A stretch of DNA of 24,000 nucleotides from the NCBI GenBank assembly GCA_048465415.1, contig DBFWLO010000014.1:11514-35513 (forward strand), read 5' to 3'. Shown here one piece after another: positions 9,260 through 24,000 of the stretch. Source of the DNA: Candidatus Scatosoma sp. (GTDB lineage: Bacteria; Bacillota; Clostridia; Christensenellales; Borkfalkiaceae). The notes beneath the pieces were generated by a model. The model made no database searches. It saw only the letters and a list, made by a program, of their open reading frames with translations, and was not told the DNA's origin. The position numbers were made by a program, and so were the translations under genes. Each line of letters starts with the position of its first letter. The first letter of the stretch is position 1.

Positions 9260-9585
9260 AATTTACCTCTCTTATATTTTACAGTTTTTCTAAAATAATT
9301 TTCTAAAGTTTTTTATGAAGTCCTACTTATTAGCTAAACGTCTATTGGTTTTGTAATATCCCAATTTGATATATAGTTTTCATTTTATTTCCTTTGATTA
9401 TTTTTCATTATACTTATTATAACATACCACTTCTAGGAAATCAATACCTAAACCATATTTTTCTTTGCTTTCTAACGTCTTATTTTAATTTGTTAAACAT
9501 TATAAAAATCTCTTTTAAGGCATCCACTTCTCTCCTTGAAAATCGTTTTACTCCTTTGAAACAGTTTTTCTATAAAGTAAAAAGC

Positions 9586-9609
9586 CGTTCCGAAAAAAAG
9601 TTCGGAACG
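9586..9609 (-). terminator. Perfect 9-bp hairpin followed by a T-rich tract on the minus strand
   Basis: CGTTCCGAA-aaaaag-TTCGGAACG. On the minus strand it is followed by gcTTTTTacTTTat. It lies about 285 nt downstream of the minus-strand ATPase gene and upstream of the jet operon, so it may insulate the two. Confidence 0.4.
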
Positions 9610-9893
9610 ACAGTCGATAATTACAGAGCTTTTTATAATGGGCACAGACCACATACAAAAACAGATCCGCGAGCCGTAGGAAAAAGGAACAAAATTTCTT
9701 TAATACGCAACATTGTAAATAGGTCTTAATTGATACGAACCTTTGAAAGCCTTCTTCCCCTTTTAATTTTCATTGTAAATTTTTTAGTTTTACTGTTCAC
9801 ATAAACCCATATAGAAATCAATGGAAGTCTTTACTCATAAACGCCTATTGATGTCTGAACATTAAAGGTTCGAATTTCAATAGGTGTTTTAGT

Positions 9894-11180
9894 CTAATTT
9901 TTCAGGGCGGTAATGGGGATTACGAAAACACCGTCAGGTCTTACATACGCAGCATTGGACATACCGCATATCACACAAAGGATTGTAGGCGCTATACCAC
10001 CGTCCTTTACAATGTCCTCTCTTAATGCAATAAGCTCAGTTGCCGCTTTTTCTATTTGATTTGCTCCGAGCTTTATTTCAAAAGCACACCAGCTTCCATT
10101 TTCAAGCTCAATAACGGCATCGATTTCTTTATTGTTGTAATCTTGATAATGGAATACGTTCGCGCCGAATGATTCCGCATAAATTTTCAAATCGCGCTCC
10201 ACGAGTGCTTCAAATAAAAACCCGAAGGTTTCAAGGTCGCCGATCAAACGCTCAGGCGTAGCCTTTAACAATGCACACGCAAGTGCGGGATCGCAGAAAT
10301 GCCGCTTTTCAGCCTGCTTTACACGAACGGAAGAACGAATGTTGGCAGAGAAAGGCAACTGATTGTCGATCAGGAACAAGCGGTTGAACACGTCGAGATA
10401 CGTTGTAACGGTGTCGCCGTCAATCGTTTCATCGTCGATTTCTTTAATATCAGAAAGGAGCTTCTTTTTAGTTGCCGTCGTGCTTTCATTTCTCGCAAGA
10501 GAACGTAGCAATAAACGCATTTTGGCAACGTCGTATTTTTTATCGTCAATTCTTTGTGAATCATCGTCAAGAATTGCATCGAGATAAGATCGCGGTAAAA
10601 GAGATGCGTTTTCGATCGGAACATTCAGATTTCCGGGCCACCCTCCGCGCACCACGAAGTTCGCAAGATCACGCAAATTGACCTCAACCGTCAACATGGG
10701 CGTTATATTGCCGTTGCACAGTTCTTTGAGAGAAATGGCACCGCTTGAATCTCCCGACTCGTAAAGTGACATCGTCCGCATACGAAGTTTACCGATTCGA
10801 CCTGCGCCGCTATGCAAAACGCCTTTCCTCTTAGGTGTCGATGAACCCGTGAGAATAAATTGTCCTTTTTTTGCTCTTTGATCCACCGTATAACGCACAG
10901 CATCCCATATTGACGTTACCTCTTGCCACTCGTCAAGAAGTCTTGGCACTTCACCCTCAAGTACAAGTGCCGGCGATATTTCGGCCAAGGCTCTGTTTTG
11001 AAAATTATTTGCGGGATCTCCTATTAAAAATTCGCTGTTGCTATGGTACGAAGAAGTCCAAGTCTTGCCACACCACTTTGGTCCTTCAATACACACAGCA
11101 CCAAAGGTGGCAAGATATTTTTTTACCATATCGTCAACGATTCTCGGTTTATATTGAGATTTATCCGCTATTTTTTTCAT
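9894..11180 (-). CDS. AAA+ ATPase with a DUF4143-type C-terminal region (AAA_14/DUF4143, COG1373-like), copy 1
   Basis: Walker A EGPKWCGKTW, Walker B RLLDEWQ, ILTGSS sensor and GAGRIG. C-terminal FEALVERDL...EIDAVIELENGSWCAFEIKLG gives a D...ExK restriction-endonuclease-like motif. The start is set at the ATG at 11180 (MKKIADKS), which has an AGGAG RBS. The upstream ATG at 11222 overlaps the predicted -10 box. Confidence 0.85.
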   Translation of the reverse strand: MKKIADKSQYKPRIVDDMVKKYLATFGAVCIEGPKWCGKTWTSSYHSNSEFLIGDPANNFQNRALAEISPALVLEGEVPRLLDEWQEVTSIWDAVRYTVDQRAKKGQFILTGSSTPKRKGVLHSGAGRIGKLRMRTMSLYESGDSSGAISLKELCNGNITPMLTVEVNLRDLANFVVRGGWPGNLNVPIENASLLPRSYLDAILDDDSQRIDDKKYDVAKMRLLLRSLARNESTTATKKKLLSDIKEIDDETIDGDTVTTYLDVFNRLFLIDNQLPFSANIRSSVRVKQAEKRHFCDPALACALLKATPERLIGDLETFGFLFEALVERDLKIYAESFGANVFHYQDYNNKEIDAVIELENGSWCAFEIKLGANQIEKAATELIALREDIVKDGGIAPTILCVICGMSNAAYVRPDGVFVIPITALKN

Positions 11181-11210
11181 AACCGATCTCCTATTGTTAT
11201 TTACATCATT

Positions 11211-11239
11211 ATTATACCACATTACTTTTGATTTTACAA
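11211..11239 (-). promoter_or_regulatory. Sigma70-type promoter for ATPase copy 1
   Basis: The minus strand reads TTGTAA (11239-11234), a 17-nt spacer, then TGG-TATAAT (11216-11211), an extended -10. It is about 30 nt upstream of the ATG at 11180. Confidence 0.55.
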
Positions 11240-11240
11240 C

Positions 11241-11309
11241 TCTATTCGGTCTAATTTTGAAATTTTATTCGGTAAAATTTATTATTTTCTTTCGGCGTAA
11301 TTTTTTATT
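11241..11309. repeat. Three tandem 23-bp iterons with core TTCGG-N3-AATTT
   Basis: TTCGG occurs at 11245, 11268 and 11291, an exact 23-bp phasing. The units are tctaTTCGGtctAATTTTgaaat, tttaTTCGGtaaAATTTattatt and ttctTTCGGcgtAATTTTttatt. The array begins 6 nt upstream of the -35 box of the minus-strand promoter. Confidence 0.6.
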
Positions 11310-11424
11310 ATTCGTGCATCAATCTTATTTCCATCAAGCCTTCTTTCAAAACGCAAAAACGGTTACGCAGTAGACAAAGAAAAGCGATTTTCAAAAAAAT
11401 TTCTCTTTAAACAACGAAAAAATC

Positions 11425-11461
11425 TTCGGCCAATTTATTAAAATTTCATAAATTGGCCGAA
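11425..11461. promoter_or_regulatory. Perfect 14-bp inverted repeat carrying the same TTCGG..AATTT motif; candidate operator
   Basis: TTCGGCCAATTTAT-taaaatttc-ATAAATTGGCCGAA. It ends 7 nt upstream of the -35 box at 11469. On the minus strand it is followed by gaTTTTTT, so it could also act as a terminator or insulator. Confidence 0.5.
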
Positions 11462-11468
11462 TAAAGTC

Positions 11469-11497
11469 TTGACAAACGGATAAAATCAGAGTATAAT
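11469..11497 (+). promoter_or_regulatory. Consensus sigma70 promoter for the ATPase copy 2 / hsdMSR operon
   Basis: TTGACA (11469-11474), a 17-nt spacer, then TATAAT (11492-11497). Both hexamers are perfect. It is about 43 nt upstream of the ATG at 11540. Confidence 0.65.
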
Positions 11498-11539
11498 ACT
11501 TTTAGTATTAAAATGCCATAGGTATACATGGAGGAATTT

Positions 11540-12769
11540 ATGAATTATATCTACCGCCATATGGAAAATAGAATTTTAGAGCTGTCACAGTCGTATTCCG
11601 CCATACTTTTGACTGGTCCGCGCCAAGCAGGTAAGACGACCATGCTCCGTTCCCTTGCAGAAAAGGAAAACAAGGGGCGTGAGTATGTGTCTCTTGACGA
11701 CCTTGTTACGCGCGATATGGCAAAGAACGATCCTGCGCTATTTTTACAAATGCATAAGCCCCCTGTATTAATCGACGAGGTTCAGTATGCGCCAGAGTTG
11801 TTTACGTATATTAAAATGCATATTGACGAAAATCATAATCCTGGCGATTTCTGGATGACAGGTTCGCAAATCTTTCGCTTGATGAAAGGCGTACAGGAAT
11901 CGCTTGCAGGACGCGTAGCGCTTTTGCATATGTCGCCTATGTCGCAGCGTGAGATTATCGGTGCGGAATGCATTCCATTCTCAACGAAGATGGAAACGCT
12001 TCTTGACGAAAGCAAAAAGATTGCGCCCGTGGATACGCCTACGCTATTTGAACGCATCTGGCGTGGTTCGATGCCTGGTATCGTATCAGGACTTTATCGC
12101 GACCGCAATATGTACTACTCGTCCTATATCTCTACGTATGTGGAACGCGACGTACGTGATATTTCGGGAACGGTAGACGCGCTTAAATTCAATCGCTTTA
12201 TTACGGCGGTCGCGGCGAGAACTTCGCAACTACTCAATTATAAAGCAATCGCAGACGATGCCGATATCGATATGGCTACGGCAAAAGCGTGGATAGCTAT
12301 TCTCGAAACGCTCGGCATCATCTTCCTTCTGCACCCGTATTCAAATAACGTGCTTAAACGCACGATTAAAACGCCGAAAGTTTATTTTTATGATACAGGA
12401 CTTGTGTGCTATCTCACGAAATGGTCAAGTCCCGAAGTTGCAGAAAGCGGCGCAATGAGCGGCGCACTTCTTGAAAATTTCACGATATCTGAAATTATGA
12501 AGGGATATCAAAACGCAGGGCTTGAACCGTATCTGTACTTTTACCGTGATAAAGACGCCAAAGAAATCGACGTTATCATGGAAGGAAACGGCAAACTCTG
12601 TCCTTTGGAAATTAAGAAAACCGCAACGCCCGACAAGCGCATCATCCGCACTTTTGGTGTGATTGACCGCGCACCATTGCAGGTTGGAACAGGCGCTGTT
12701 TTGTGTATGGCGGAACAGTTCGGCGCATTCGATAGGGATAACCTCATCATACCGATTTGGATGATATAA
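11540..12769 (+). CDS. AAA+ ATPase with a DUF4143-type C-terminal region (AAA_14/DUF4143, COG1373-like), copy 2; restriction-linked
   Basis: Walker A TGPRQAGKTT, Walker B VLIDEVQ, WMTGSQ and LAGRVALL. C-terminal LLENFTISEI...EIDVIMEGNGKLCPLEIKKT gives a D...ExK motif. The ATG at 11540 has a GGAGG RBS 5 nt upstream. The stop is only 12 nt before the hsdM ATG. Confidence 0.85.
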   Translation: MNYIYRHMENRILELSQSYSAILLTGPRQAGKTTMLRSLAEKENKGREYVSLDDLVTRDMAKNDPALFLQMHKPPVLIDEVQYAPELFTYIKMHIDENHNPGDFWMTGSQIFRLMKGVQESLAGRVALLHMSPMSQREIIGAECIPFSTKMETLLDESKKIAPVDTPTLFERIWRGSMPGIVSGLYRDRNMYYSSYISTYVERDVRDISGTVDALKFNRFITAVAARTSQLLNYKAIADDADIDMATAKAWIAILETLGIIFLLHPYSNNVLKRTIKTPKVYFYDTGLVCYLTKWSSPEVAESGAMSGALLENFTISEIMKGYQNAGLEPYLYFYRDKDAKEIDVIMEGNGKLCPLEIKKTATPDKRIIRTFGVIDRAPLQVGTGAVLCMAEQFGAFDRDNLIIPIWMI

Positions 12770-12781
12770 TGGAGAAGAAAA

Positions 12782-14386
12782 ATGGCTAAAAAGACTACTG
12801 AAGAAAAAATAAACTTGGATTCTATACTGTTTAAGTGCCGCGATATATTGCGTAAAGCAAGAAATTCGGGGTCGTTCTTTGAAAAACGCGATATGATGTT
12901 GACGCTCGTATTTTTGCGTTTCATTGGTGAAAAATTTGAAGACGGGCTTAAAAAACTCCGTCAAGACCTTATCGAACAAGGACTTGACCCCGATGATGAA
13001 GATATTATTGCCGCATTCTTCGACGACGCAACCTTCACGGACGGCACGTACAACCTGCCCTTAGAGGCCCGTTGGTCTACCATCATCAATACCCCTGCGC
13101 CGAAACTCAACGTCGCACTCGATACCGCACTTCATAGCATTGCCGCAAGTAGTACGCAGTTGAAGGGCTGTTTTGTGGAAGGCACGTTCACTGCGCGCAA
13201 CCTTGCCCCCAACGACATCAAACAAGTCGTGGACGAAGTAAACAAAATCAGCCATAAAGTGTTTGGTAAAGAAAAAGATTTAATCGGTCGCGTATATGAA
13301 TATTTCTTGAAAGAGTTCGCCGTAAACGCAACCAAAGAAGAAGGCGAATTCTACACTCCGCATGACGCAGTTCAGCTTATTGCTACAATCATAGAACCGT
13401 TTGACGGCACATTGTATGACCCTTGTTGCGGTTCGGGAGGTATGTTTGTTCAAAGTACCGATCTTATTAGAGAAAAACACGGCGACATTAGCCGTATCAA
13501 CGTTTACGGACAAGAAAAAGAAGCAGCAACCTATCGCCTGGCAAAAATGAACCTTGCGCTTCGCGGCATCAGCCATAACCTTGGCGAAACGAGCGATTCT
13601 ACCTTTACGCACGATTTGCATAAAGGTTTATACTTTAACTACATTATGGCAAACCCGCCCTTTAACCTTAAAGGCTGGTACGACGATAATTTGAAAAACG
13701 ATTCCCGTTGGGCGGACTATACCACGCCTCCTGAAAGTAACGCAAATTATGCATGGATTTTGCATATGCTTTCGCATTTAAAACCCCTTGACGGCGTTGC
13801 TGGTTTCTTGCTCGCTAACGGTGCATTAGGTGATAGTGATACACTGGAAATTCGTAAAAAGCTGATACAAAATAATAAAGTCGAAGCCATCATTATCCTT
13901 CCGCGAGAACTTTTTATTACCACGGATATCAGCGTTACCCTTTGGATTTTGAACCAAAATAAAAAAGGCGGCACATATCACGGAAGAAAACTTCGTAACC
14001 GTGAACACGAAATTTTGTTTATGGACTTACGTACTTGGACGGAAAATCACGTTTCGGGCGAAAACAAAAAGAAAGTGCGTTTAGACGATACGCAAATTCA
14101 ACGTGCTGCCGATATATACCACACTTGGCAAAGCGAAGGAACCGATGGCAAGAATTATGCCGTACCCGAACTTTACCGCAGCGTAAGTATGGACGAAATT
14201 GATAAAAAAGGCTGGACGCTTGTACCCAGCAAGTATATCGAGTTTATCGACCACGATTTGGATATTGACTTCCCTATGGAAATGGCGCGTATTCAAAGCG
14301 AAATGAAAGAAATCATCAAACAAGAAAAACAATCGCAAAAAATGTTGGAAGATGCTTTTAGGGGTATTGGCTATGGCATTGACTAA
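12782..14386 (+). CDS. hsdM: Type I restriction-modification system, N6-adenine DNA methyltransferase subunit M
   Basis: 534 aa. HsdM N-terminal region, AdoMet motif LYDPCCGSGGMF and catalytic motif IMANPPFN. GGAGA RBS. Followed by hsdS and hsdR. Confidence 0.95.
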   Translation: MAKKTTEEKINLDSILFKCRDILRKARNSGSFFEKRDMMLTLVFLRFIGEKFEDGLKKLRQDLIEQGLDPDDEDIIAAFFDDATFTDGTYNLPLEARWSTIINTPAPKLNVALDTALHSIAASSTQLKGCFVEGTFTARNLAPNDIKQVVDEVNKISHKVFGKEKDLIGRVYEYFLKEFAVNATKEEGEFYTPHDAVQLIATIIEPFDGTLYDPCCGSGGMFVQSTDLIREKHGDISRINVYGQEKEAATYRLAKMNLALRGISHNLGETSDSTFTHDLHKGLYFNYIMANPPFNLKGWYDDNLKNDSRWADYTTPPESNANYAWILHMLSHLKPLDGVAGFLLANGALGDSDTLEIRKKLIQNNKVEAIIILPRELFITTDISVTLWILNQNKKGGTYHGRKLRNREHEILFMDLRTWTENHVSGENKKKVRLDDTQIQRAADIYHTWQSEGTDGKNYAVPELYRSVSMDEIDKKGWTLVPSKYIEFIDHDLDIDFPMEMARIQSEMKEIIKQEKQSQKMLEDAFRGIGYGID

Positions 14387-15497
14387 ATACAAATTAGGCG
14401 ATTTAATAGAGTCTTGCGACGTACGAAATTACGAAGACGCTTATACTCTTGACGATGTTAGGGGGATTTCAACGAACAAGGAATTTATTGAAACAAAAGC
14501 AGATATGGACGGGGTAAGTTTGTCCTCCTATAAAGTGGTCGATAAAGGTGAATTTTCTTATGTTTCAGATACTTCAAGACGAGGCGAAAAAATAGCTCTC
14601 ACTTTCAACAAAAGCGAACAGGCATACTTGATATCGTCCATATATACAGTTTTTCGGGTGACGAGAAAAGAGTTGATACATCCCGACTATCTGTTTATGT
14701 ATTTCAATCGTCCAGAGTTTGATCGATATGCTCGCTTTAATTCTTGGGGCTCAGCAAGAGAAGTATTCAGTTGGGAGGACTTGTGCGATATAAATATCGA
14801 ACTTCCCGACTTGCCTACGCAACAAAAATACGTGGATATTTACAAAGCAATGGTGGCAAATCAGCAAAGCTACGAGCGCGGCTTGGAAGACTTGAAACTC
14901 GTTTGCGACGGCTATATTGAAGACCTGCGTCGTAAAATGCCTTGTGAAAAAATCGGTCAATATCTCATTGAAAGCGACCAAAAAAACGATATCGGACTTA
15001 TTCTTGAAGCCGTCAGAGGATTATCTACGAATAAAGCGATGATACCAACCAAAGCCGATATGAACGGAGTTGGGCTTGATGGATATAAGGTAGTAAATCC
15101 CCGACAAATCGCTTATGTTCCCGATACTTCAAGACGAGGCGAAAAGGTTTCGCTTGGTTTTAACAATACAACGGAGCAGTTTTTAGTGTCTTCTATCTAT
15201 ACTGTTTTTGGAACAAACCCCGAGGTCTTGATTCCCGAATACTTGATGTTATTCTTCACGAGAGCAGAGTTCGATCGCTATGCACGCTTCAACTCGTGGG
15301 GTTCGGCACGCGAAACGTTTGAATGGAGCGAAATGCGTAATGTTCAAATACCTATTCCCGACATTCCAATACAGCAAGCAATAGTCGATGTTTACAACGC
15401 GTATATTACACGTAAAGAAATAAACGAGCGATTGAAAGCACAAATCAAGGATATTTGCCCCATCTTAATCAAAGGCTCATTAGAAGAAGGAAAATAA
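14373..15497 (+). CDS. hsdS: Type I restriction-modification system, specificity subunit S
   Basis: Two target-recognition-domain halves, each followed by a conserved helical region (..FDRYARFNSWGSARE..). The ATG at 14373 (MALTKYKLGDL) overlaps the hsdM stop by 14 nt. The ATG at 14352 is an alternative start. Confidence 0.9.
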   Translation: MALTKYKLGDLIESCDVRNYEDAYTLDDVRGISTNKEFIETKADMDGVSLSSYKVVDKGEFSYVSDTSRRGEKIALTFNKSEQAYLISSIYTVFRVTRKELIHPDYLFMYFNRPEFDRYARFNSWGSAREVFSWEDLCDINIELPDLPTQQKYVDIYKAMVANQQSYERGLEDLKLVCDGYIEDLRRKMPCEKIGQYLIESDQKNDIGLILEAVRGLSTNKAMIPTKADMNGVGLDGYKVVNPRQIAYVPDTSRRGEKVSLGFNNTTEQFLVSSIYTVFGTNPEVLIPEYLMLFFTRAEFDRYARFNSWGSARETFEWSEMRNVQIPIPDIPIQQAIVDVYNAYITRKEINERLKAQIKDICPILIKGSLEEGK

Positions 15498-15555
15498 ATT
15501 ATGACAGATTACGAAAAATTAAAGAGTAGTATCATCAATACATAGGAGAAACACT

Positions 15556-18500
15556 ATGGCAAAATTACACAATTTTAACGGGCGTTATTGCGAATCTGAA
15601 TACGAAAACGCTTTCCTTTCCTTTTTAGAACAAGAAGGCTGGGCATATCTTGCAGGAAACAACATTCCGCGCACAACAAAACGCGATGCGATTTATACTG
15701 ACGATTTGGAACAGTTTTTAAGCAAAACGAACGTCGATTTAACCGTAGACGAAATACGGCAGATTATAGACACCGTCCGCCTTGTGGGTTCGGAAAGCGA
15801 GTTTTCCACCTTACATAAGGTTTACGGTTGGATGGTCAACGGCATTCAATTTACGTCGCAATCGGGGCTTGCTAAAATGGTTGCTCTGATTGATTTTGAA
15901 AATTTCGAAAATAATATTTTCCGTGCGGTCAACCAATTCACTGTGGAATATACACACAATGGACTAGTTGAAACGCGCCGTCCTGATATAATTTTGTTTG
16001 TCAACGGCATGCCTTTATGTCTAATCGAGTTGAAAAATCCGGCAGATGCAAACGCAACTATTTACACCGCTTGGGAGCAAATTTACAATCGCTATTGGCG
16101 CGACATTCCACACCTTTTACATTTCAGTCCTTTGGCGTGCATTTCCGACGGTGTTAAAACGCGTCTTGGAACGGTTCGTACGCCTTATGAACATTTCTAT
16201 GCTTGGCGTCGTATCAATGACGGAGATAAAGTTTCTACTCTTCCTTTTGAAGAAACGCAAGCTATGATTAAGGGTGTTTACAGCCCTGAAAGATTCCTGG
16301 AAATCTTCCGTGACTACATATATTTCCAAGACAGCGAATATGACAGTGATGAACGCGAAATCGTTTGCCGTTATCCGCAGTTTTTTGCCGCACGTTTATT
16401 GAAAAACAGTATTATAAAATCTGTTATAGAAAAAAGCGGTAAAGGCGGTACGTATTTTGGTGCAACAGGTTGCGGTAAAACGTACGCTATGGCGTTCCTT
16501 GCCCGTCAACTTGCTTTGCGTTGTACGGACGTGCCTGAAATCGGTTCTCCCACTATTGTTTTAATCGTTGATCGTGACGATTTGCAAAAACAAGGCGCAA
16601 AACTATTTACCAAAAGTAAAGAATTCTTAAATCTTGGCGAAGTTAAAATTGTTCCTACACGTAAAGTATTGCGTGAAGAACTCGGCGCACGTGAAAGCGG
16701 CGGTTTTTATATCTGTACTATTCAAAAATTCTGTGACCGTGAAGATGATAAAATCGGTCTTATTAACGACCGTGCGAATATTATTTGCTTCTCTGACGAA
16801 GCGCATAGAACGCAGCTTGAGCATGCAAAGAAAATTAAGTTCAGCAAGGATACTGATGAGAATATGAGAGCTATGATTTCTAAACCGTATGCGAAAGTAT
16901 TAAAAGAAGCTCTTCCCAAGGCTACGTTCGTTGGGTTTACCGGTACGCCTATTTCTGAAACGTATCAGACTTTCGGTGATGAAATTGACCGTTACACAAT
17001 GGACCAAGCGGTTGCCGACGGACTTACGGTTTCTATCAAATATCATCCCCGTATCACAAAAGTATTGCTTGACCAAGAAAAAGTCAAACAAATTGAAGCG
17101 TATTACAAGAAATGTGCCGATGATGGTGCAACTGAAGGAGATATTGAAGCAAGCAAAAAGGCTATGAGTTCAATGGAAGTAATCCTTGGCGAGCCTTCAC
17201 GTTTAGAACGTCTTGCGGTGGATATTCACAACCACTACGTTTCGTCTTGCGCAAACACCCCTACAAGAGTACAAAAAGCAATGATTGTTTGTTCCAGCAG
17301 AACGATTGCTTACCAACTCTTGAAGGAATTCGAAAAGAAGTATCACGAATGGTTTGAAGAAAAGAAAACGCCCGACGGTATGGACGCAACCGATGAAGAA
17401 TTGCGTGAATTGAAACCTATGCCATGCATCGCCATGGTTGCAAGCGTCGGCAGTAATGACGATTCTGAAATGTATAACTATTTAGGCGGTGTTAAAAATA
17501 GCAAGCGTTCAGATGATATGGCTGCGGCGTTCAAGCAAGATAAATCAAACTTCCGTATTGTTATCGTCGTCGATATGTGGATAACGGGTTTTGACGTACC
17601 TTCGCTGACATATATGTACAATGATAAACCTCTTAAAAAACACATGCTTATACAAACAATTAGCCGTGTTAATAGAAAATTTGAAGGAAAAGACTATGGC
17701 TTAATCGTGGACTATATCGGTATTCGTGATAATATGCGTGAAGCGATAAAAATCTACGGGGGTGATGTGTCTGTTGCTCCTTCTTCTGACGATGTGGAAC
17801 AGGCTACCGCTATTTTTAGAGAAGAACTTGAAATCCTTAAAGACCTTTTCAACGGCTATGATTTAGCTCCGTTCCTTGACCCAAGCGGTGATCCTACTTT
17901 AAGATATACGCTGTTAGCAAAAGCAGCCGAATACGTGTTTATTTCCACACAGGAACTGCAAACACAAACTGACGGCGGTAAAGGCGTTAAAAAGGTATCC
18001 TTTAAGACTTACTTTTTGAAAACCGTTAAACGTATGCGCACGGCTTACGACATTTGCCAACCTTCCGGAGAACTTGGTGAAGAAGAATCCGCACTCGCAC
18101 AATGCTTTATGGCTATAGCTGGTTTTGTTCGCAAGATGAGCGGTACTAGCGATGTGGATACGGAAACTATGAATCGCCATGTAGCTCAAATGGTTGAAGA
18201 AGCCCTGAAATACAATAAAGTTGAAAGCATTCTTGAAGACGGCGAGCAAGAAGATATTTTCAGTCCCGAATACTTTGAAAGATTGATTGACGTTAAGATG
18301 CCTGCCTCCAAGTTAGAATTGCTCATAAAAATGCTTCGTAAGCAAATCAAGGAATACGGTAAAACCAACCAAATGGCGGCGAAAAAGTTCCAAGAAATGC
18401 TTGAAGAAACGATTAAGTTATACCACGAAAGAAGAAAAACGCTCTCTGCCGAAGAATCAGATGAAGCACAAGAATATACGTCGGAAGAGATTATTCGTAG

Positions 18501-18885
18501 CGCAACCGAACAGGCTCTCCGCATCTTAAAGGATATGAACGCCGACCGCGAAAGTTTCCGTAAGATAGGCTTGACCTTTGAGGAAAAGGCGTTCTACGAT
18601 ATTTTGATGGCTTTACGTGACCAGTACAACTTTGAATATGGCGAAAATAAGGTCGTTGACGGCGTAGTGCTTAACGATAGATGCAAGGCGTTGGCAAAGA
18701 AAATCAAGGAAATCATAGATACGAAATCTTCGTTTGCCGACTGGCTTAACAATCAAATCGTGCGCGATCAGTTGAAATTTGATATCAAGGTATGCTTGAT
18801 TAAAAACGGATATCCCCCACAATATAGCCCCGAAGTTTTCCGTAAAATCATAGAACAAGTTGAAAACTTCGAGGAGAATAATTAG
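15556..18885 (+). CDS. hsdR: Type I restriction enzyme, R subunit (helicase/endonuclease)
   Basis: 1109 aa. An N-terminal nuclease region with a PD-(D/E)xK-like segment (RPDIILFVNGMPLCLIELKN). Helicase motif I FGATGCGKTY and motif II (DEAH-type) CFSDEAHRTQ. Long C-terminal helical domain. Confidence 0.95.
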   Translation: MAKLHNFNGRYCESEYENAFLSFLEQEGWAYLAGNNIPRTTKRDAIYTDDLEQFLSKTNVDLTVDEIRQIIDTVRLVGSESEFSTLHKVYGWMVNGIQFTSQSGLAKMVALIDFENFENNIFRAVNQFTVEYTHNGLVETRRPDIILFVNGMPLCLIELKNPADANATIYTAWEQIYNRYWRDIPHLLHFSPLACISDGVKTRLGTVRTPYEHFYAWRRINDGDKVSTLPFEETQAMIKGVYSPERFLEIFRDYIYFQDSEYDSDEREIVCRYPQFFAARLLKNSIIKSVIEKSGKGGTYFGATGCGKTYAMAFLARQLALRCTDVPEIGSPTIVLIVDRDDLQKQGAKLFTKSKEFLNLGEVKIVPTRKVLREELGARESGGFYICTIQKFCDREDDKIGLINDRANIICFSDEAHRTQLEHAKKIKFSKDTDENMRAMISKPYAKVLKEALPKATFVGFTGTPISETYQTFGDEIDRYTMDQAVADGLTVSIKYHPRITKVLLDQEKVKQIEAYYKKCADDGATEGDIEASKKAMSSMEVILGEPSRLERLAVDIHNHYVSSCANTPTRVQKAMIVCSSRTIAYQLLKEFEKKYHEWFEEKKTPDGMDATDEELRELKPMPCIAMVASVGSNDDSEMYNYLGGVKNSKRSDDMAAAFKQDKSNFRIVIVVDMWITGFDVPSLTYMYNDKPLKKHMLIQTISRVNRKFEGKDYGLIVDYIGIRDNMREAIKIYGGDVSVAPSSDDVEQATAIFREELEILKDLFNGYDLAPFLDPSGDPTLRYTLLAKAAEYVFISTQELQTQTDGGKGVKKVSFKTYFLKTVKRMRTAYDICQPSGELGEEESALAQCFMAIAGFVRKMSGTSDVDTETMNRHVAQMVEEALKYNKVESILEDGEQEDIFSPEYFERLIDVKMPASKLELLIKMLRKQIKEYGKTNQMAAKKFQEMLEETIKLYHERRKTLSAEESDEAQEYTSEEIIRSATEQALRILKDMNADRESFRKIGLTFEEKAFYDILMALRDQYNFEYGENKVVDGVVLNDRCKALAKKIKEIIDTKSSFADWLNNQIVRDQLKFDIKVCLIKNGYPPQYSPEVFRKIIEQVENFEENN

Positions 18886-18952
18886 TCTAACTCCAATAAA
18901 AGTATGTTAAAATTTCTTTATACAAACGATTAAAGAGTTAACTTATGATTTC

Positions 18953-19828
18953 ATGAAGATAATTAGAGAGAGCAACTCAATGATTGATAGAAGAATAAAA
19001 AACGCAGAAATATTCCGTGACACGGAGCAATGCTACACAACCAACCAAGTATTGCGGCAAGGGGTTGAAACATCAATAGAAACTCAGATTTTTATTCCAG
19101 AAAAATCTACTGTATGCTTACATGCCCTTTGTAAAACAGAAAAAGCGAGAGTCATTGTAAGCGGAAAGCGTTCGCTCGAAGCGGCTGAAAACTAAGTCAA
19201 ACAAGGTAAACAGGTGTGCGTGTTGAACTTTGCTTCTGCCACAAATCCTGATGGGGGCGTTGTTAGCGGTTCCTCCGCGCAAGAAGAATGTATTTGCAGA
19301 TGCACTACTTTATATCCTTGCCTAAGCACTAAAATGATGTGGGATGTATTTTACGCACCGCATTGTCAAACGGCAAGTCCATTATATAATGACGATTGCA
19401 TCTATACGCCAAACATTTGCGTGTTCAAGAGCGATACAAATTTCCCTGAACCGCTTCTTCAAGAAAAATGGTGGAGCGTGAATATTCTCACTTGTGCTGC
19501 CCCTAATCTACGCGAACGTCCCAACAATAGAATGAATCCGCATGCAGGTGATACGGCAACAAGGATTACCCATGAAGAACTTGAAGAATTACTAACGACA
19601 CGGATTCGTCGAATATTTGAAATTGCGGCTGCAAACAAAAACGAAATTTTGATTCTTGGTGCATTTGGATGCGGTGCTTTTAGAAATCCCCCTGAAATCA
19701 CGGCAAAGGTGTTCAATAACGTGATGAAGGATTACTTGTGCTATTTCGATACAATCGAATATGCAGTTTATCATACTGAACGTGAATTGGCAAACTATGA
19801 AGCATTCCAGAAAATAATTGAAAGCTAA
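18953..19828 (+). pseudogene. PARG-like macrodomain protein (TIGR02452/DUF2263 type) interrupted by an in-frame TAA at 19193-19195
   Basis: ORFs 18953..19195 and 19214..19828 are in the same frame with no other stop between them, reading ..SLEAAEN*VKQGKQVCVLNFASATNPDGGVVSGSSAQEECICRCTTLYP... The NFASA..GGG-x7-QEE motif is the bacterial PARG/macrodomain signature as I recall it. Here the first Gly is Asp (DGG). The true start may be the ATG at 18980 (MIDRRIK). Confidence 0.7.
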
Positions 19829-19830
19829 GT

Positions 19831-19880
19831 AGAGCCCGGTGATCGGTCAAGGTCGCCGCGCTCTATTTTTATTTTTTATT
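19831..19880 (+). terminator. Rho-independent terminator after the macrodomain gene
   Basis: The hairpin AGAGCCCGGTGATC-ggtcaa-GGTCGCCGCGCTCT (19831-19864) has a 14-position stem with one mismatch and two G-U pairs. It is followed by aTTTTTaTTTTTTaTT. Confidence 0.6.
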
Positions 19881-19952
19881 CTTTTGACAAACAAAGACAC
19901 ATGAAACTATATAGTATTTTCATAAACGCATTAATACATTCCTAAAAACGAC

Positions 19953-19981
19953 TTGACAAATAATTCCAAATATGTTAAACT
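19953..19981 (+). promoter_or_regulatory. Sigma70-like promoter facing the element genes
   Basis: TTGACA (19953-19958), a 17-nt spacer, then TAAACT (19976-19981). A second TTGACA at 19884-19889 has TATATA about 18 nt downstream. Confidence 0.35.
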
Positions 19982-20225
19982 ATATATGTTGATACAAATT
20001 CATAGGCGCACATTTATTAAAACAATTAAGCTCGTATAAACCTTTGTGCACACAACTGAATACACATAATATTTTTTAAGAATTTTTAGACTTGTACATA
20101 GTAAACGGATTGCTTTCAGCCGTTTTTTGTGCAGGTCTTTTTTGTTTGCCCTTAATAAATATCAGGAGGTAAAAATACGAAACAAAAATGAACAGAAGAA
20201 AAACAACAAGGAGGGTGTTACAAGG

Positions 20226-20645
20226 TTGAGATACTACGATTCTAACCGAAAGGATATCCCCGGGAAATATTTCCCTATGCCGAAAGCAGTGTTTCGACTC
20301 GATCTCGATACAGGTGAAATTGCGCTTCTCACCTACCTCATGTACTGCGAGAACCGAAAAACCTTCTAATGTTATCCGAGCTACTCCACCATCGGCCGAG
20401 CGATCGGAATGAGCAACAACACCGTCAGGAAGTATGTTGACAGCCTCAGGCGCAAAGGCTTCCTCTGCACCGAGCCCACGATGGTGAAAACCCTTGACGG
20501 TCGCTTTCACAACGGCAGTCTCCTCCATACTTTACAACCGATCAAGCCTTTGGAGGATGCTTACTATAAGCAGCAACTATGCGAAGCGGAGGCAAGGTTG
20601 AACTTCAAAAAAGCAATGGCAAAATATGAAAAAACCAGGAAGTAA
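20226..20645 (+). pseudogene. Helix-turn-helix (replication-initiator-like) protein typical of Firmicute-type ICE/IME, interrupted by an in-frame TAA at 20367-20369
   Basis: ORFs 20127..20369 and 20409..20645 share a frame and read ..YLMYCENRKTF*CYPSYSTIGRAIGMSNNTVRKYVDSLRRKGFL... The likely start is the TTG at 20226 (MRYYDSNRKDIPGKYFPMP), after AAGGAGGG. From memory, intact homologues read ..RKT(F/Y)QC(Y/H)PSY.., so CAA->TAA is plausible. Confidence 0.6.
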
Positions 20646-20650
20646 ATGAA

Positions 20651-20872
20651 ATGAAACAGTCGATGTATAAGAGCCGTGAGGAGATGCCTATGTTCCTCAC
20701 CGTGATGGACGTAGCAAATCTGCTTGGGATTTCCCGAGCGAGCGCCTACGAGCTTGTGCGCGAGGAGAACTTTCCGAAGCTGAAAATCGTTCAGGGCAGA
20801 ACCATCATACCGCGCGACAGACTTCTCGAATGGCTCGATGAACAGACGAAATACGACCATACAGCAAAATAG
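20651..20872 (+). CDS. Excisionase-family / MerR-like helix-turn-helix DNA-binding protein
   Basis: ..PMFLTVMDVANLLGISRASAYELVREENFPKLKIVQGRTIIPRDRLLEWL.. is the typical HTH_17/Xis-type pattern. An alternative start at 20690 has a GAGGAG RBS. Confidence 0.75.
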   Translation: MKQSMYKSREEMPMFLTVMDVANLLGISRASAYELVREENFPKLKIVQGRTIIPRDRLLEWLDEQTKYDHTAK

Positions 20873-20895
20873 GGTTTTGCGAAACCCTATTTTTT
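20869..20895 (+). terminator. Rho-independent terminator
   Basis: ATAGGGTTT-tgcg-AAACCCTAT is a perfect 9-bp stem with a 4-nt loop, followed by TTTTT. It overlaps the TAG stop at 20870-20872. Confidence 0.7.
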
Positions 20896-21152
20896 AAGCA
20901 GGATAAAGCCGTGTCTGCCCCACACGGCATACCACATCGCACGGCAACGCCGAGCGAGACGAAACCGGGGCGTGATAAGGCTTTTTGAAGACCTCTCCCC
21001 TGCCAAATCACAAAGACATATCGTGTCTGCGGGGGGACAAAATCGACACTTTATAGTCTTACAGTACCAAAATATCAAGGCGTTACAAGGGATTGCAGAT
21101 ATCTGATCATGGCGCCTTCCGAAGTTTTACAATCATCAAAAGGAGAAAAACG
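20896..21152 (+). other. Candidate oriT / relaxosome assembly region
   Basis: About 250 bp of non-coding sequence immediately upstream of the RHH and relaxase genes. It contains the inverted repeat GCCGTGT-ctgcccc-ACACGGC (20908-20928). The 9-mer CGTGTCTGC occurs at 20910-20918 and 21022-21030. A G6 tract starts at 21031. Confidence 0.3.
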
Positions 21153-21554
21153 ATGGAACAAAATAACGATATACTTGAAGCAAGAGGCGTTAGCCTCACC
21201 AAAAAACAGTGGGCACGCTGCGACAGGCTCGCAGAGGACAAAGGTTATAAATCGCGCAATGCCTTCATCCGGGAAGCCGTGGATTTCTACTGTGCGTGGA
21301 TAGAGAAGGAACATATTGAAAAATTTCTTCTGCCGTCTCTGGAATCCGTCATCGGGGCGAAGGTAAGAGACAGCGAGGAACGCATTTGCAGACTTTTGTT
21401 TAAGCTTGCGGTCGAGCAAAATTCTCTTGCCAAGATCATGGCGAGAGAGTATGAAGAATACGACACATATCTCCTGGACGAAATCCGCCAGGAAAGTATC
21501 CGTGAAGTGAAAGAAACCAACGGCACTATTCGTATTCGGGAACACTTCGAGTAA
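21153..21554 (+). CDS. Ribbon-helix-helix (CopG/MobC-like) DNA-binding protein, probable relaxosome accessory factor
   Basis: The ATG at 21153 (MEQNNDILEARGVSLTKKQW..) follows an AGGAG RBS. The RHH-like segment is VSLTKKQWARCDRLAEDKGYKSRNAFIREAVDFY. It lies directly upstream of the relaxase. Confidence 0.65.
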   Translation: MEQNNDILEARGVSLTKKQWARCDRLAEDKGYKSRNAFIREAVDFYCAWIEKEHIEKFLLPSLESVIGAKVRDSEERICRLLFKLAVEQNSLAKIMAREYEEYDTYLLDEIRQESIREVKETNGTIRIREHFE

Positions 21555-21564
21555 GGAGGCATGA

Positions 21565-23304
21565 ATGGCAGGATTAATTTTGAAAGCCCCCTACTACAAG
21601 CCCGGACAAACCAACGAACAGGGTCAGTCCCGAGGCGGCTACGTCGAATATATTGCAAAGCGCGAAGGCGTTGAAATTCTTCGGAGCGGTATGGCAAGCT
21701 ATATCGGCGAACGCCGCGGCTCGCACGGTTTATTTTCGGATGAGGGTATAAAAATAAATCTCTCCGCCGTCGGCAAAGAGATAGAAGAACACCCGGGCAA
21801 CATTTGGGGCTTCATCATTTCGCTCAAACGCGAAGACGCCGAGCGTCTCGGTTACAACTGCGCGGAACAATGGCTGAATCTGCTGCGTTCCCGCCGCAAT
21901 GACATTGCAAGAGAGATGGGCATCGCGCCCGGAAACTTCCGTTGGGTTGCCGCCTATCATAACAAAGAACTCAATCCCCACGTGCATCTGCTGGCGTGGT
22001 CGTCACGTCCGCAAGAGCCCTATCTCTCCCGCACAGGCATTCAGCATATCAAGCAAACTCTTGCGGGGGATATCTTTCGGCAAGAGCTGATCTCGATTTA
22101 TAAAAAGCAGACCGCTGCAAGAGATGACGTTAAGGAAAGATACCGTGAGCGTATCAAAGAATTGGTTTCCGAAATTCAAAACGGCAATCACGCCTTCTCA
22201 CCCGAGCTGATTTCAAAAATGTAAATCCTTTCAAAGAGACTCCAAAAAGTCAAAGGCAAGAAGGTCTACGGGTATCTTGATAAAAATTCGAAAGCTCTCA
22301 TAAAGGAAATAGTAACAATGCTTGGGAGGGATGAAAAAATTGCGGAGCTTTACGAGTCGTGGTACAGATATAAATGCGAAACCGTCCGTACCTATACCGA
22401 CAAACTGCCGAAAAAAATTCCGATCGAGGAGAACGAGGAATTCAAATCCGTCCGCAATGTTGTCGTGCGCTGTGCGGCCGCGCCCGGAAAGCTCGGCGAA
22501 CCGCCCGACCGAGATATCGATTTCGATTACTCTGTGCTCAAAGACAAGGCAGACGATTTCAGATATTTATATGTAGAAGCCAATTCGACGGACGATCCCT
22601 TTGCGTATTGCCGTCTCGGGCGGTATTATCTTGAAAAGACGGACGATATGGAACAAGCGGAGTATTGGCTGCGCATGGCGGCAGACCAAGGAAACGCCTT
22701 AGCCGCATATCTAGTCTATAAAAGCTGCCGCAACGGAAAATTTACCGAGACGCCGAGCGACAAAATGAAATACCTTCGTATGGCGGCAGATGCCGGGTTT
22801 GGATATGCCGAATATGAATACGCCAAGTATCTGCAAGACAAGTCCCCTGTCGATGCGAAAAATTATTTGCGGAGTGCCGCCGAGCACAGCTGTTTCCACG
22901 CCGCATATATGCTCGGCAAGCGGCTCTTCGACGAAGGCAGGCACGAAGAAGCAAAGGAATGGTTCCAACGCTCCGCGCAGAGCGACACCTGGGCTCAAAC
23001 GAGAGTCGGGTTGCTATTTTATTACGAATACAATGATCATGAGACAGGCAAGGAATTTCTTCAAACTGCCGCCGACAACGGATACACTCCCGCAGAAGAA
23101 GCCTTTAAGGCGATACAAAATAATCTTAACGCACAATTCCTTGTCGGGGTATGCGATTTATTTTATTACGCAGGCAATCTCATCGACGAACGTACCGAGG
23201 ATATGTATGACAAAGAACAGCAGATAAAGGGCCGCGGCATTGACCGCAAACAGAAGAAAGCGATACGTGAAAAGAAGCAGAGCATGGGTTTGAAAGGCCT
23301 ATAA
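21565..23304 (+). pseudogene. MobL-type conjugative relaxase with C-terminal Sel1-like repeats, interrupted by an in-frame TAA at 22222-22224
   Basis: N-terminal motifs HGLFSD, IWGFIISLKREDAERLGY and WVAAYHNKELNPHVHLLAWS (His-triad type). The frame stays open from 22225 through the ATG at 22318, reading ..ELISKM*ILSKRLQKVKGKKVYGYLDKNSKALIKEIVTMLGRDEKIAELYESWY... The C-terminus has repeated A-A-x-x-G-x-x-x-A-x-Y-x-L-G type Sel1 units (RMAADQGNALAAYLVY, RMAADAGFGYAEYEYAKY, RSAAEHSCFHAAYMLGK). Confidence 0.8.
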
Positions 23305-23420
23305 CGGAGATGAAAAAATAATGATAATAAACCGATAATTCCTCGCAAAAACGCTGGATATTCTCTCGAACCTGTGGTATATTTGTGGTACGACAAAAAT
23401 CACAAAAACAGGAGGAACTG

Positions 23421-23726
23421 ATGGCTAAGCTGATTAGAAAACATTTTGGAAAACTGGTTTCGGTAGAGCCGAACACCCCATCGGGAATCGACAAGGAATG
23501 GTCTTGGCGCAAAGCCTACGAAGGATTTTACGGAATTATTCATGTTTATGAAAGCCGGCATAGATTTTCAGGGAAACATTTTATCGTGATATACGATATA
23601 GACTTCGACTATCTGAAAACGGGTGTGGGAGAGTTAACATACGAAGGCAAGCGTATTCTCCTAAATACCCGAAACAGCAGATACGCATTCACGTATATAG
23701 ACCTTGAAAAAAAGGATGGTGATTAA
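23421..23726 (+). CDS. Hypothetical protein (101 aa) abutting the integrase
   Basis: The ATG at 23421 (MAKLIRKHFGK..) has an AGGAGG RBS 5 nt upstream. Its TAA stop (23724-23726) directly abuts the integrase ATG (23727). I recognise no family. Confidence 0.5.
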   Translation: MAKLIRKHFGKLVSVEPNTPSGIDKEWSWRKAYEGFYGIIHVYESRHRFSGKHFIVIYDIDFDYLKTGVGELTYEGKRILLNTRNSRYAFTYIDLEKKDGD

Positions 23727-24000
23727 ATGGCAAGCAGACGCAGACCGCAAGGCGACGGTATGGTACGTAAACGGGACGACGGACGATGGGAAGGTCGCAT
23801 CGTTATCGGGCATAAGAAAAACGGCGCGCCGATGTATAAATCGGTGTTCGGGAATACCCAAAAATCAACGCTGAAACAGCTTCATCAGCTGATAGACCTC
23901 TACCGCGACGTCGACCTTACGGAAGAATGCCGCATGACGCTCGGCGAATGGATGGACAAGTGGCTCGACGAGTATATGATATTCAAAATCAAAGAAAACA
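23727..24000 (+). CDS. Tyrosine-type site-specific integrase, N-terminal part (runs off the right edge)
   Basis: Absent from the ORF track because it is truncated. The translation is MASRRRPQGDGMVRKRDDGRWEGRIVIGHKKNGAPMYKSVFGNTQKSTLKQLHQLIDLYRDVDLTEECRMTLGEWMDKWLDEYMIFKIKEN. The G(x)VRKR.DGRWEGR beta-hairpin arm-binding motif followed by a TLGEW..WL core-binding helix is typical of Tn916/ICE-family tyrosine integrases. Confidence 0.75.
   Translation, partial: MASRRRPQGDGMVRKRDDGRWEGRIVIGHKKNGAPMYKSVFGNTQKSTLKQLHQLIDLYRDVDLTEECRMTLGEWMDKWLDEYMIFKIKEN

Follow-up and report, generated by a model that had tools for sequence, protein, structure and literature searches.

Mobile elements that have lost their mobility and kept useful cargo are a familiar sight in bacterial genomes, and these grounded elements include defective prophages and degenerate ICEs and IMEs (integrative mobilisable elements) whose integrase, relaxase or replication genes have become pseudogenes. 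Domesticated defective prophages were reportedly described by Bobay, Touchon and Rocha in 2014. Firmicutes and Clostridia also have IMEs that are integrated at tRNA genes and carry a relaxase of the MobL/MobP3 type (PF18555, NF041499). Stop-codon reassignment and suppressor-dependent expression, involving TAG or TGA recoding, are known from phages and from some bacteria. On plasmids, pseudogenes of relaxase and mobility genes mark lost mobility (PMC11229322, PMC9185392). The window analysed here, a stretch of 24,000 nucleotides, contains three genes, for a PARG-like protein (microbial-type poly(ADP-ribose) glycohydrolase family), an HTH_36 protein and a relaxase, each of which is interrupted by an in-frame TAA. 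Ordinary nonsense decay of a stranded mobile element, which calls for no new code or mechanism, is very probably the explanation.

The comparison rests on relatives drawn from about 20 human metagenome samples, with 16–20 loci covering each gene. In these relatives, the ATPase, type I restriction–modification (RM), PARG and mobilisation genes form an island of about 21 kb between tRNA-Pro-derived repeats, with an intact tRNA-Pro at its right end and a 49–93-bp copy of the 3′ part of that tRNA about 520 bp 5′ to the ATPase gene. As in tRNA-integrated IMEs, the direct repeats of the relatives thus derive from a tRNA 3′ end, the cargo arm varies (L031 has another RM system), and tyrosine recombinase(s), HTH_17 and a ribbon–helix–helix (RHH) protein accompany the relaxase, with no conjugative genes seen; domains of a T4SS or of coupling proteins were found in none of the genes of the island in the relatives. 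By its gene content (Int1, Int2, HTH_17 and MobL present, conjugation apparatus absent), the island is, as predicted from sequence, an IME. In the window lineage, however, the left repeat is absent, and no tRNA-Pro-derived copy of it was found in the window or in the 2.8 kb further left. Compared with L036, the window lineage lacks about 2.7 kb, in which Fic/Bro-N genes and the left attachment repeat, 49 bp derived from tRNA-Pro, are located; the junction lies at a motif of about 19 bp which is duplicated in L036. With its left repeat lost in this deletion, the island is probably immobile in the window strain and probably unable to excise. Unlike a working IME, with the left repeat lost and the relaxase and one recombinase broken, it would be a remnant.

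Table 1. Features of the island in the window, with coordinates in the window unless otherwise stated
Feature	Position	Strand	Remarks
Deletion junction	11364..11382		single copy of TACGCAGTAGACAAAGAAA; about 2.7 kb of relative L036 missing
AAA_14/DUF4143 ATPase, type I HsdM, HsdS and HsdR	11528..18885	+	intact cargo
PARG-like gene	18953..19828	+	island cargo; pseudogene here
PARG codon 81 TAA	19193..19195	+	TAC (Tyr) to TAA; C->A change
PARG Gly100Asp	19250..19252	+	GGT to GAT; first Gly of the GGG-X6-8-QEE signature
HTH_36 gene (winged-helix DNA-binding)	20226..20645	+	mobilisation module; PF13730, residues 27–80; pseudogene
HTH_36 codon 48 TAA	20367..20369	+	CAA (Gln) to TAA
HTH_17 excisionase-like gene	20651..20872	+	PF12728, TIGR01764; intact
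Ribbon–helix–helix protein gene	21153..21554	+	PF01402; directly 5′ of the relaxase gene; intact
MobL/MobP3 relaxase gene	21565..23304	+	PF18555, NF041499; Sel1/TPR-like C-terminal half; pseudogene
Relaxase codon 220 TAA	22222..22224	+	CAA (Gln) to TAA
101-aa protein gene	23421..23726	+	function unassigned; conserved in module; intact
Int1 tyrosine recombinase, 5′ part	23727..24000	+	387 aa; intact in extension L007
Int2 recombinase, codon 99 TGA	25189..25191 (window-equivalent; L007 13625–13627)		outside window; CGA (Arg) to TGA

Translation of the three frames places one internal stop in each gene, and translation across the TAA gives full-length products that are matched by Pfam/NCBIfam family models on both sides of the stop. 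The codon alignments with intact relatives are gapless, with zero indels in the PARG-like, HTH_36 and relaxase genes. The observation of the earlier note, namely three genes with a single in-frame TAA each and no frameshifts, thus stands, as does its statement that the rest of the coding sequence is free of such lesions: when the window was scanned for open segments of at least 70 codons that lie in one frame with a single stop between them, no further interrupted real gene came up, and the other large open reading frames match their own Pfam models essentially end to end. A fourth nonsense mutation, in the second integrase (Int2), lies about 1.2 kb beyond the window end on a Logan contig, which was assembled separately from the records of this genome (SRR16554638). 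The earlier note mentioned neither this fourth stop nor the structure of the island at tRNA-Pro, nor that the left repeat had been lost.

Each interrupted gene is intact in every relative that covers it (PARG-like 16/16, HTH_36 20/20, relaxase 20/20). Alignment with these intact homologues, the check that had been proposed, recovered ancestral sense codons (Table 1). The glutamine that had been named for the HTH gene agrees with the codon of the relatives, and the sense codon at every stop site in all covering relatives (16–20 loci) upholds the proposal of a recent, derived inactivation in an acquired segment. Judged from these alignments, the three TAAs are genuine, independent and derived point nonsense mutations that are predicted to be inactivating. 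The stops would end translation normally. The PARG product would be only 80 aa long and lack the catalytic macrodomain, and the HTH product would break off after 47 aa, within the DNA-binding domain. Of the relaxase, 219 aa would be made, without the last part of its relaxase domain and without any of the C-terminal half, and of Int2 98 aa.

Internal stops are a known class of artefact in low-coverage or low-quality assemblies (PMC11017572), and all three contigs of the window lineage may stem from one isolate or sample and one read set, so that substitution errors of sequencing or assembly, one of the explanations first put forward, could have produced spurious stops. However, the Logan contig, a separate k-mer-based assembly, agrees with the window at every one of 12,436 bases (100% identity), stops included, which makes an assembly error unlikely. 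Random errors should also scatter, whereas the three window stops all fall within the PARG/mobility module, which makes up 21% of the coding sequence ((0.21)^3 = 0.009); this non-uniform clustering fits differential selection. Moreover, since a random substitution creates a stop in about 4% of cases, four stops would imply roughly 100 errors in 7 kb, whereas the private changes in HTH36, Int1 and Int2 are mostly synonymous. The excess of change in PARG also ends at the gene boundary, beyond which the adjacent HsdR is only half as densely changed and looks to be under purifying selection. Taken together, we consider a spurious origin of the stops very unlikely.

A different reading holds that the stops are suppressed or read through, by a suppressor tRNA, a reassigned TAA or programmed read-through, giving full-length expression. 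As in stop reassignment, in-frame stops sit within otherwise intact-looking mobile-element genes. The frames remain open past them, indels are absent, and genes interrupted by stops are reported to be expressed at a low level in Salmonella (PMC9122581). In contrast to stop reassignment, however, there is one stop per gene, two codon types are involved (the fourth stop is TGA), and TAA is an ordinary terminator that ends 10 of the 16 window genes, the three interrupted ones included; no more than three genes in the 24 kb have an internal stop. The replaced residues differ (Tyr, Gln, Gln, Arg). The stops occur in no relative, each position being a sense codon in all covering loci, and hence are no conserved feature of the kind expected of programmed read-through. 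The window and L007 contain no tRNA gene, and the islands of the relatives have Pro-CGG as their only tRNA; a suppressor tRNA was found in none of them. With PARG, in addition, showing neutral change and damage to its catalytic motif, expression across the stops, which the earlier note had listed as an option, is scarcely credible.

The three identical TAAs had been taken as a non-random pattern, and a C->T-biased process had been suggested to account for them. Under the lineage's own spectrum, about 45% of the nonsense paths in the affected genes lead to TAA, giving P = 0.09 for three of three; with TGA as the fourth stop, the identity of the codons loses its force. The more specific idea is a localised C->T hypermutation of the acquired segment, deaminase-like or chemical. 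In its favour, all nonsense mutations but that in PARG are C->T on the coding strand, three out of four, and the PARG stop is part of a double change, TACGCC to TAAGTC. However, PARG acquired its stop by a C->A transversion, and the three C->T sites share no common context (TCC, TGC, ACC). The spectrum of the 200-odd substitutions private to the window lineage is ordinary and strand-symmetric (C>T 42, G>A 37, T>C 29, A>G 25), with no strand-coordinated signature, and under it at least three C>T among four nonsense events have a probability of about 0.09; the share of C>T, like that of TAA, is not significant. Such hypermutation is thus highly improbable.

The PARG-like gene appears to differ from the other interrupted genes in its history. 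Its product is matched by PF10021 (119.7 bits against a cutoff of 23.5, 1.8e-34) and TIGR02452 (173.1 bits against a cutoff of 50) over residues 29–287, and it is homologous over residues 44–290 (E about 1e-26) to the solved bacterial PARGs of Deinococcus radiodurans (5ZDA-5ZDG) and Thermomonospora curvata (3SIG), in an alignment that takes in the NFASA...GGG...QEE region. The copies of the relatives retain the full signature, as do the solved PARGs, whereas the window copy reads NPDGGVVSGSSAQEE in place of GGG-X6-8-QEE, that is, NPDGG...QEE against NPGGG...QEE. The change from GGG to DGG, which the earlier note had ascribed to a G->A mutation, is indeed one (Table 1). Besides the stop at codon 81, followed by a second changed codon (GCC to GTC), and this Asp, the window copy carries nine further amino-acid changes. 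The window-specific changes number 2 synonymous, 10 nonsynonymous and 1 stop, a pattern indistinguishable from neutrality (p = 0.75); in contrast, those of the neighbouring HsdR (15 synonymous, 10 nonsynonymous, 0 stops) are significantly non-neutral, and the two ratios differ (2:10 vs. 15:10, Fisher p = 0.015). The PARG-like copy thus appears to show neutral decay. No gene for an ADP-ribosyl-transferase partner was seen near it, and we infer a transfer-related role for PARG.

The relaxase is recognised over residues 1–300 by the MobL (PF18555, 85.8 bits against 28.5) and MobP3 (NF041499, 280.6 bits against a cutoff of 150) models and has the HxH motif, NPHVH at residues 137–141, which is invariant in an alignment with 12 homologues. 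These homologues have Q, and in one case E, at the position of the stop, and the best 120 of 2,897 hits are 576–581 aa long, whereas the frame in the window ends at codon 220. The RHH protein encoded directly upstream is likely a relaxosome accessory. The window-specific changes in HTH_36 comprise 17 synonymous, 9 nonsynonymous and 1 stop, and HTH36, Int2 and Int1 all keep a strong synonymous excess; HTH36, MobL and Int2 show no visible nonsynonymous rise. Because the synonymous excess is retained, the stops in HTH36 and Int2 look recent, and the relaxase stop likewise looks recent. In other clades, Int2 has been broken separately by a 1-bp deletion, showing that decay of the mobility module recurs.

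Ordinary decay would run as follows. An island of about 21 kb, with a DUF4143 ATPase, a type I RM system and a PARG-like gene as cargo, would have integrated at a tRNA-Pro gene, and its left attachment repeat would have been lost in one lineage when 2.7 kb were deleted between short repeats, after which the island would probably have been unable to excise. Genes that serve only the excision, transfer or establishment of the element would then lose their selective upkeep and accumulate knock-outs, and the host-useful defence cargo would be kept under purifying selection. We infer that grounding came first and decay second. As in other grounded elements, the island in the window has inactivating point mutations in mobility genes and has lost one attachment site, its type I RM and ATPase cargo is under purifying selection, and independent lesions differ by lineage, as the Int2 frameshift elsewhere illustrates. 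The number of stops agrees with the neutral expectation given 37–48 private nonsynonymous changes. Int1 and the excisionase, RHH and 101-aa genes are intact; about 1.3 stops would be expected in them if they had been neutral for as long as PARG, and the probability of none is about 0.27. Such decay of islands is ordinary and already known in kind, and the locus offers a small example of island domestication in which the attachment site is lost, the self-serving genes decay and the RM cargo is kept by purifying selection. It also gives a clean negative, in that readings such as recoding, a suppressor tRNA or hypermutation are tempting, whereas about 20 intact relatives show ordinary nonsense pseudogenes. 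For annotation, the three window genes become pseudogenes and the island probably non-mobile in the window strain.

We note two differences from known grounded elements. First, all four lesions are nonsense mutations, without indels and in a single sampled lineage. Frameshifts usually make up at least half of bacterial gene disruptions, whereas the disrupting lesions in the window lineage are 4/4 substitutions and 0 indels (roughly P = 0.01–0.06), a mild and post hoc oddity that we count against decay as the best explanation. Second, three of the four genes of the window lineage show no detectable earlier relaxation of selection; three near-simultaneous knock-outs (HTH36, MobL, Int2) by pure drift need some luck.

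Selection for silencing, raised in the earlier note, differs from decay only in the force that fixes the mutations: knock-outs of functions in excision, replication and transfer, and of PARG, would be favoured because they stabilise a useful RM island or remove the cost of an active element. Four genes each carry a nonsense mutation, three of them with few signs of earlier relaxed selection; Int2 was inactivated separately in other clades, the defence cargo is retained intact, and the element has a MazE-like antitoxin gene in L007, all of which speaks in its favour. However, it concerns one lineage only, with no replication, the stop count is compatible with the neutral expectation given above, and PARG looks neutral rather than swept; we regard silencing by selection as unlikely. 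An active element might be costly, for example, if its excised circle came into conflict with the neighbouring Wadjet, a system known to attack small circular DNA. A Wadjet with the exact JetB of the window was seen only in the window lineage; clade-B relatives, which have intact mobility genes, lack it in the 10 kb to the left (the clade-A contig ends there), and this distribution favours silencing. A newly acquired Wadjet beside the island might have made the excising circle a liability, the more so as the element also has an antitoxin-like gene and a useful RM system, so that lineages with attachment-site loss and nonsense mutations in the integrase, relaxase, HTH and PARG genes were favoured, although we hold this version to be slightly less probable again. 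If true, this would be a case of host defence driving an integrative mobilisable element to rapid domestication by substitutions alone.

Each of the three genes in question, set within a patchwork of defence and mobile DNA (listed below), is interrupted once. Translation of the three frames gives exactly one internal TAA in the PARG-like gene (19193-19195), the HTH_36 gene (20367-20369) and the MobL/MobP3 relaxase (22222-22224), and family profiles align both upstream and downstream of each TAA. Codon alignments of the three genes with relatives contain no gaps, showing that none carries a frameshift, and a scan for same-frame open segments parted by one stop found no further interrupted real gene in the window. 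The earlier note was right about single in-frame TAAs, no frameshifts, family sequence running across the stops, and no other such lesion in the window's coding sequence. A contig of the window's own lineage that reaches 5 kb past its end (L007, the Logan contig of run SRR16554638) adds a fourth interrupted gene, the second tyrosine recombinase, Int2 (473 aa in intact relatives), which carries CGA->TGA at codon 99, without indels (L007 13625-13627, window-equivalent 25189-25191, roughly 1.2 kb beyond the window); Int2 is intact in the relatives L002 and L003. The full pattern is four nonsense mutations within about 6 kb, not all of them TAA.

Genes of the window, in order of position
Feature	Position	Strand	Remark
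LacI-family regulator	1001-2038	minus	
Wadjet system (JetD, JetC, JetB, JetA)	2778-9259	minus	complete; G+C about 0.31-0.35
DUF4143/AAA_14 ATPase	9894-11222		
Second DUF4143 ATPase	11528-12769	plus	
HsdM	12782-14386	plus	type I restriction-modification
HsdS	14352-15497	plus	type I restriction-modification
HsdR	15556-18885	plus	type I restriction-modification
PARG-like gene	18953-19828	plus	
HTH_36 gene	20226-20645	plus	
HTH_17 gene	20651-20872	plus	excisionase-like
Ribbon-helix-helix (RHH) gene	21153-21554	plus	
MobL/MobP3 relaxase	21565-23304	plus	C-terminal half Sel1/TPR-like
101-aa gene	23421-23726	plus	
Tyrosine recombinase	from 23727 to window end	plus	start only

The relatives come from different human metagenome samples: about twenty syntenic loci, taken from contigs encoding the closest relaxase homologues, that share a gene order (ATPase, RM, PARG, HTH, excisionase, RHH, relaxase, 101-aa gene, integrases). 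Every relative covering the gene has it intact (16 loci for PARG, 20 for HTH, 20 for the relaxase), so split ORFs are not the normal state of these families but a derived one, private to the window's lineage. The codons replaced are TAC (Tyr) in PARG and CAA (Gln) in both HTH and the relaxase, Gln being the residue that the earlier note gave for the HTH gene. The read-through relaxase has 2,897 homologues at E <= 1e-20, the best 120 of these being 576-581 aa long, and at the stop position 12 aligned homologues have Gln, except for Glu in one. Beyond these loci, scanning genome contigs with the relaxase gave nothing closer than distant relatives at 31-63% identity in MAGs of Oscillospiraceae and Eubacteriales, exact protein look-ups of HsdM, JetB and the PARG fragment matched solely the window lineage's own contigs, and a megablast of the 18.9-24 kb segment against plasmid and phage collections found no match. 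Two DNA-pattern scans of a metagenome contig collection also found no match, even for a 26-mer; since L004 and L005, both JGI-derived loci, carry this 26-mer, the null scan reflects a gap in the collection and is not evidence of absence.

Apparent splits of MobL in L031 (6299-8046) and of HsdM in L042 (3129-4736) were rejected as mutations, as short N runs in these scaffolds shift the frame. HsdR is split into two parts, 373 + 116 aa, in one relative (L018/L038 4566-6043), with about 1.8 kb missing, and is called as 1017 aa in another (L040 4533-7586); these are possibly further island lesions in other lineages.

Spurious internal stops are a known problem of poor assemblies (PMC11017572), and substitution errors in the assembly had been among the explanations offered for the stops. 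However, a second, k-mer-based assembly agrees with the window base for base: the Logan contig of SRR16554638 is 100% identical to window 11565-24000, and the 219-aa truncated relaxase fragment occurs on three contigs, of which this assembly is one. Furthermore, the three stops are confined to the PARG/mobility module, which makes up 21% of the coding sequence ((0.21)^3 = 0.009), the private changes of neighbouring genes are mostly synonymous, and four error-derived stops would need about a hundred random errors within 7 kb. The lesions are real, with a small residual doubt at the level of the reads.

The identity of the stop codons, which had been called non-random-looking, is within chance. 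TAA is the normal terminator of 10 of the window's 16 genes, the three interrupted ones among them. When every single-base change that gives a stop in the four genes is weighted by the window lineage's own substitution spectrum, TAA accounts for 45% of the nonsense routes and C>T for 31%, giving P = 0.09 for three of three TAA, 0.24 for at least three of four TAA (the fourth stop being TGA) and 0.09 for at least three of four C>T. The C->T-biased mutational process suggested in the earlier note fares no better, given that the PARG stop arose by a C->A transversion and that the 200-odd private substitutions (C>T 42, G>A 37, T>C 29, A>G 25, the rest transversions) display the usual mild AT bias without strand asymmetry; a burst of deaminase-like or mutagen action finds no support. 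Two further candidates were dropped: TadA-type mRNA editing, prompted by the ancestral TACG at the PARG site, because the change sits in DNA and makes a stop, and engineered base editing, in view of the C->A lesion and of the natural, gut-type bacterial setting. At the PARG stop, two changes lie two bases apart (TACGCC -> TAAGTC, window 19193-19198) and may be one multi-nucleotide mutational event.

Expression through a suppressor tRNA, read-through or recoding was likewise rejected: two different stop codons (TAA and TGA) occur, TAA serves as an ordinary terminator here, the ancestral residues at the four stops differ (Tyr, Gln, Gln and Arg), the stops are absent from every relative, PARG is in neutral decay, and no tRNA is encoded nearby. 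No tRNA gene was found in the window, and no Rfam family matches anywhere in it.

Judged by the other changes within each gene, the stops appear to differ in age. The window-specific changes in PARG (2 synonymous, 10 nonsynonymous, 1 stop) are indistinguishable from the neutral expectation of 24:72:4 (p = 0.75) and significantly different from those in the adjoining HsdR (15:10:0; Fisher p = 0.015). PARG also carries Gly100Asp within its signature GGG-X6-8-QEE, a signature that relatives and solved bacterial PARGs keep unaltered; this bears out the GGG->DGG change noticed earlier. The neutral pattern together with Gly100Asp indicates that PARG has been a pseudogene for some time. By contrast, HTH36 (17:9:1), Int2 (35:10:1) and the first tyrosine recombinase, Int1 (12:7:0), show a strong synonymous excess, and the ratio in the relaxase (9:8:1) matches that of the intact clades (36:46 and 7:10), suggesting that the stops in HTH36, the relaxase and Int2 are recent. 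Four stops per 37-48 private nonsynonymous changes is within the neutral expectation (about 2-3). That all four lesions are substitutions, without indels, is mildly unusual: with the typical frameshift share among gene disruptions, P is estimated at roughly 0.01-0.06, for a post hoc observation on four events.

The affected genes lie in a mobile element. The segment ends on the right, in relatives, with an intact tRNA-Pro(CGG), whose 3' part recurs as a copy about 520 bp upstream of the plus-strand ATPase gene (49 bp, 100% identical in one clade; 93 bp, 89% identity in the other), indicating that the ATPase, RM, PARG, mobilisation and integration genes form one island of about 21 kb at tRNA-Pro. 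As no conjugation genes were found in it, the island is an integrative mobilisable element, and its cargo serves defence.

The window lacks the left repeat (attL): no copy of the tRNA-Pro repeat was found in it or in 2.8 kb further left (L033, of the same lineage). Window 9417-11396 is collinear with 1-1977 of the relative L036, and window 11345-13000 with L036 4695-6353. The switch between these blocks falls inside the short motif TACGCAGTA(G/A)ACAAAGAAA, which L036 has ahead of each of its two divergent DUF4143 ATPase genes and the window only once (11364-11382). In L036, the segment missing from the window, roughly 2.7 kb, carries the 49-bp tRNA-Pro-derived repeat as well as Fic and Bro-N genes. 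The simplest reading of this alignment is that attL was lost, along with the Fic/Bro-N genes, through a 2.7-kb deletion between the motif copies. With such a left end, the island would no longer be excised by attL x attR recombination, element-only genes would lose their selective value, and the RM system and ATPase would keep theirs. Such a loss of attL-dependent mobility would match which genes are broken and which are intact, and we infer that the deletion came first and gene decay second; for PARG, our guess is a transfer-related role of the anti-defence type. Int2 is also broken in other clades, where one G is deleted (GGGCGAG -> GGGC-AG, window-equivalent 25606; L001, L017, L018, L023-L026, L028, L030). 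As these clades keep both repeats, some decay of the module occurs regardless, and Int2 was lost on more than one occasion. As a whole, the case is one of a stranded integrative element decaying in a familiar way while its useful cargo is retained, and is of a kind already known.

Selection for silencing of the mobile element is inseparable from drift with one lineage. The Wadjet block lies directly left of the island, and a Wadjet with the exact JetB of the window is seen solely in the window's lineage, whereas ordinary chromosomal genes occupy this place in clade-B relatives that have intact mobility genes; for clade A, the comparison of this region is limited by a contig end. A conflict between Wadjet and the excising circular element is possible, with low probability.

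The core is highly mosaic between lineages, with separate 300-bp segments closest to separate relatives. The HTH-to-Int2 core is also found in L031 behind a different RM system, the homology of L031 to the window beginning directly after the PARG stop codon. Identity to relatives shifts sharply at the PARG end, from about 99% on the left to 90-94% on the right (window 19829-21150), and three indels plus 45 private differences mark the 397-bp intergenic region after PARG. The 15-bp sequence ATTCCAGAAAATAAT forms an exact direct repeat, once at the PARG 3' end (window 19804-19818) and once at L002 19772-19786, between HTH_3 and CI-like genes near the island right end (about 0.06 matches expected by chance), and may be a relic inner attachment site of the HTH-to-integrase core. 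Within the RM operon, HsdS 14393-15348 is the sole part not aligning with relatives, bar a 185-bp stretch at 92% identity; HsdS is 368-375 aa in relatives, and its divergence is typical swapping of target-recognition domains. A 150-aa antisense ORF (20076-20528, minus) overlaps the HTH_36 gene, and gene callers picked it, or a 114-aa version, over HTH_36 in the window lineage and in several relatives with HTH_36 intact; it is probably a gene-calling artefact.
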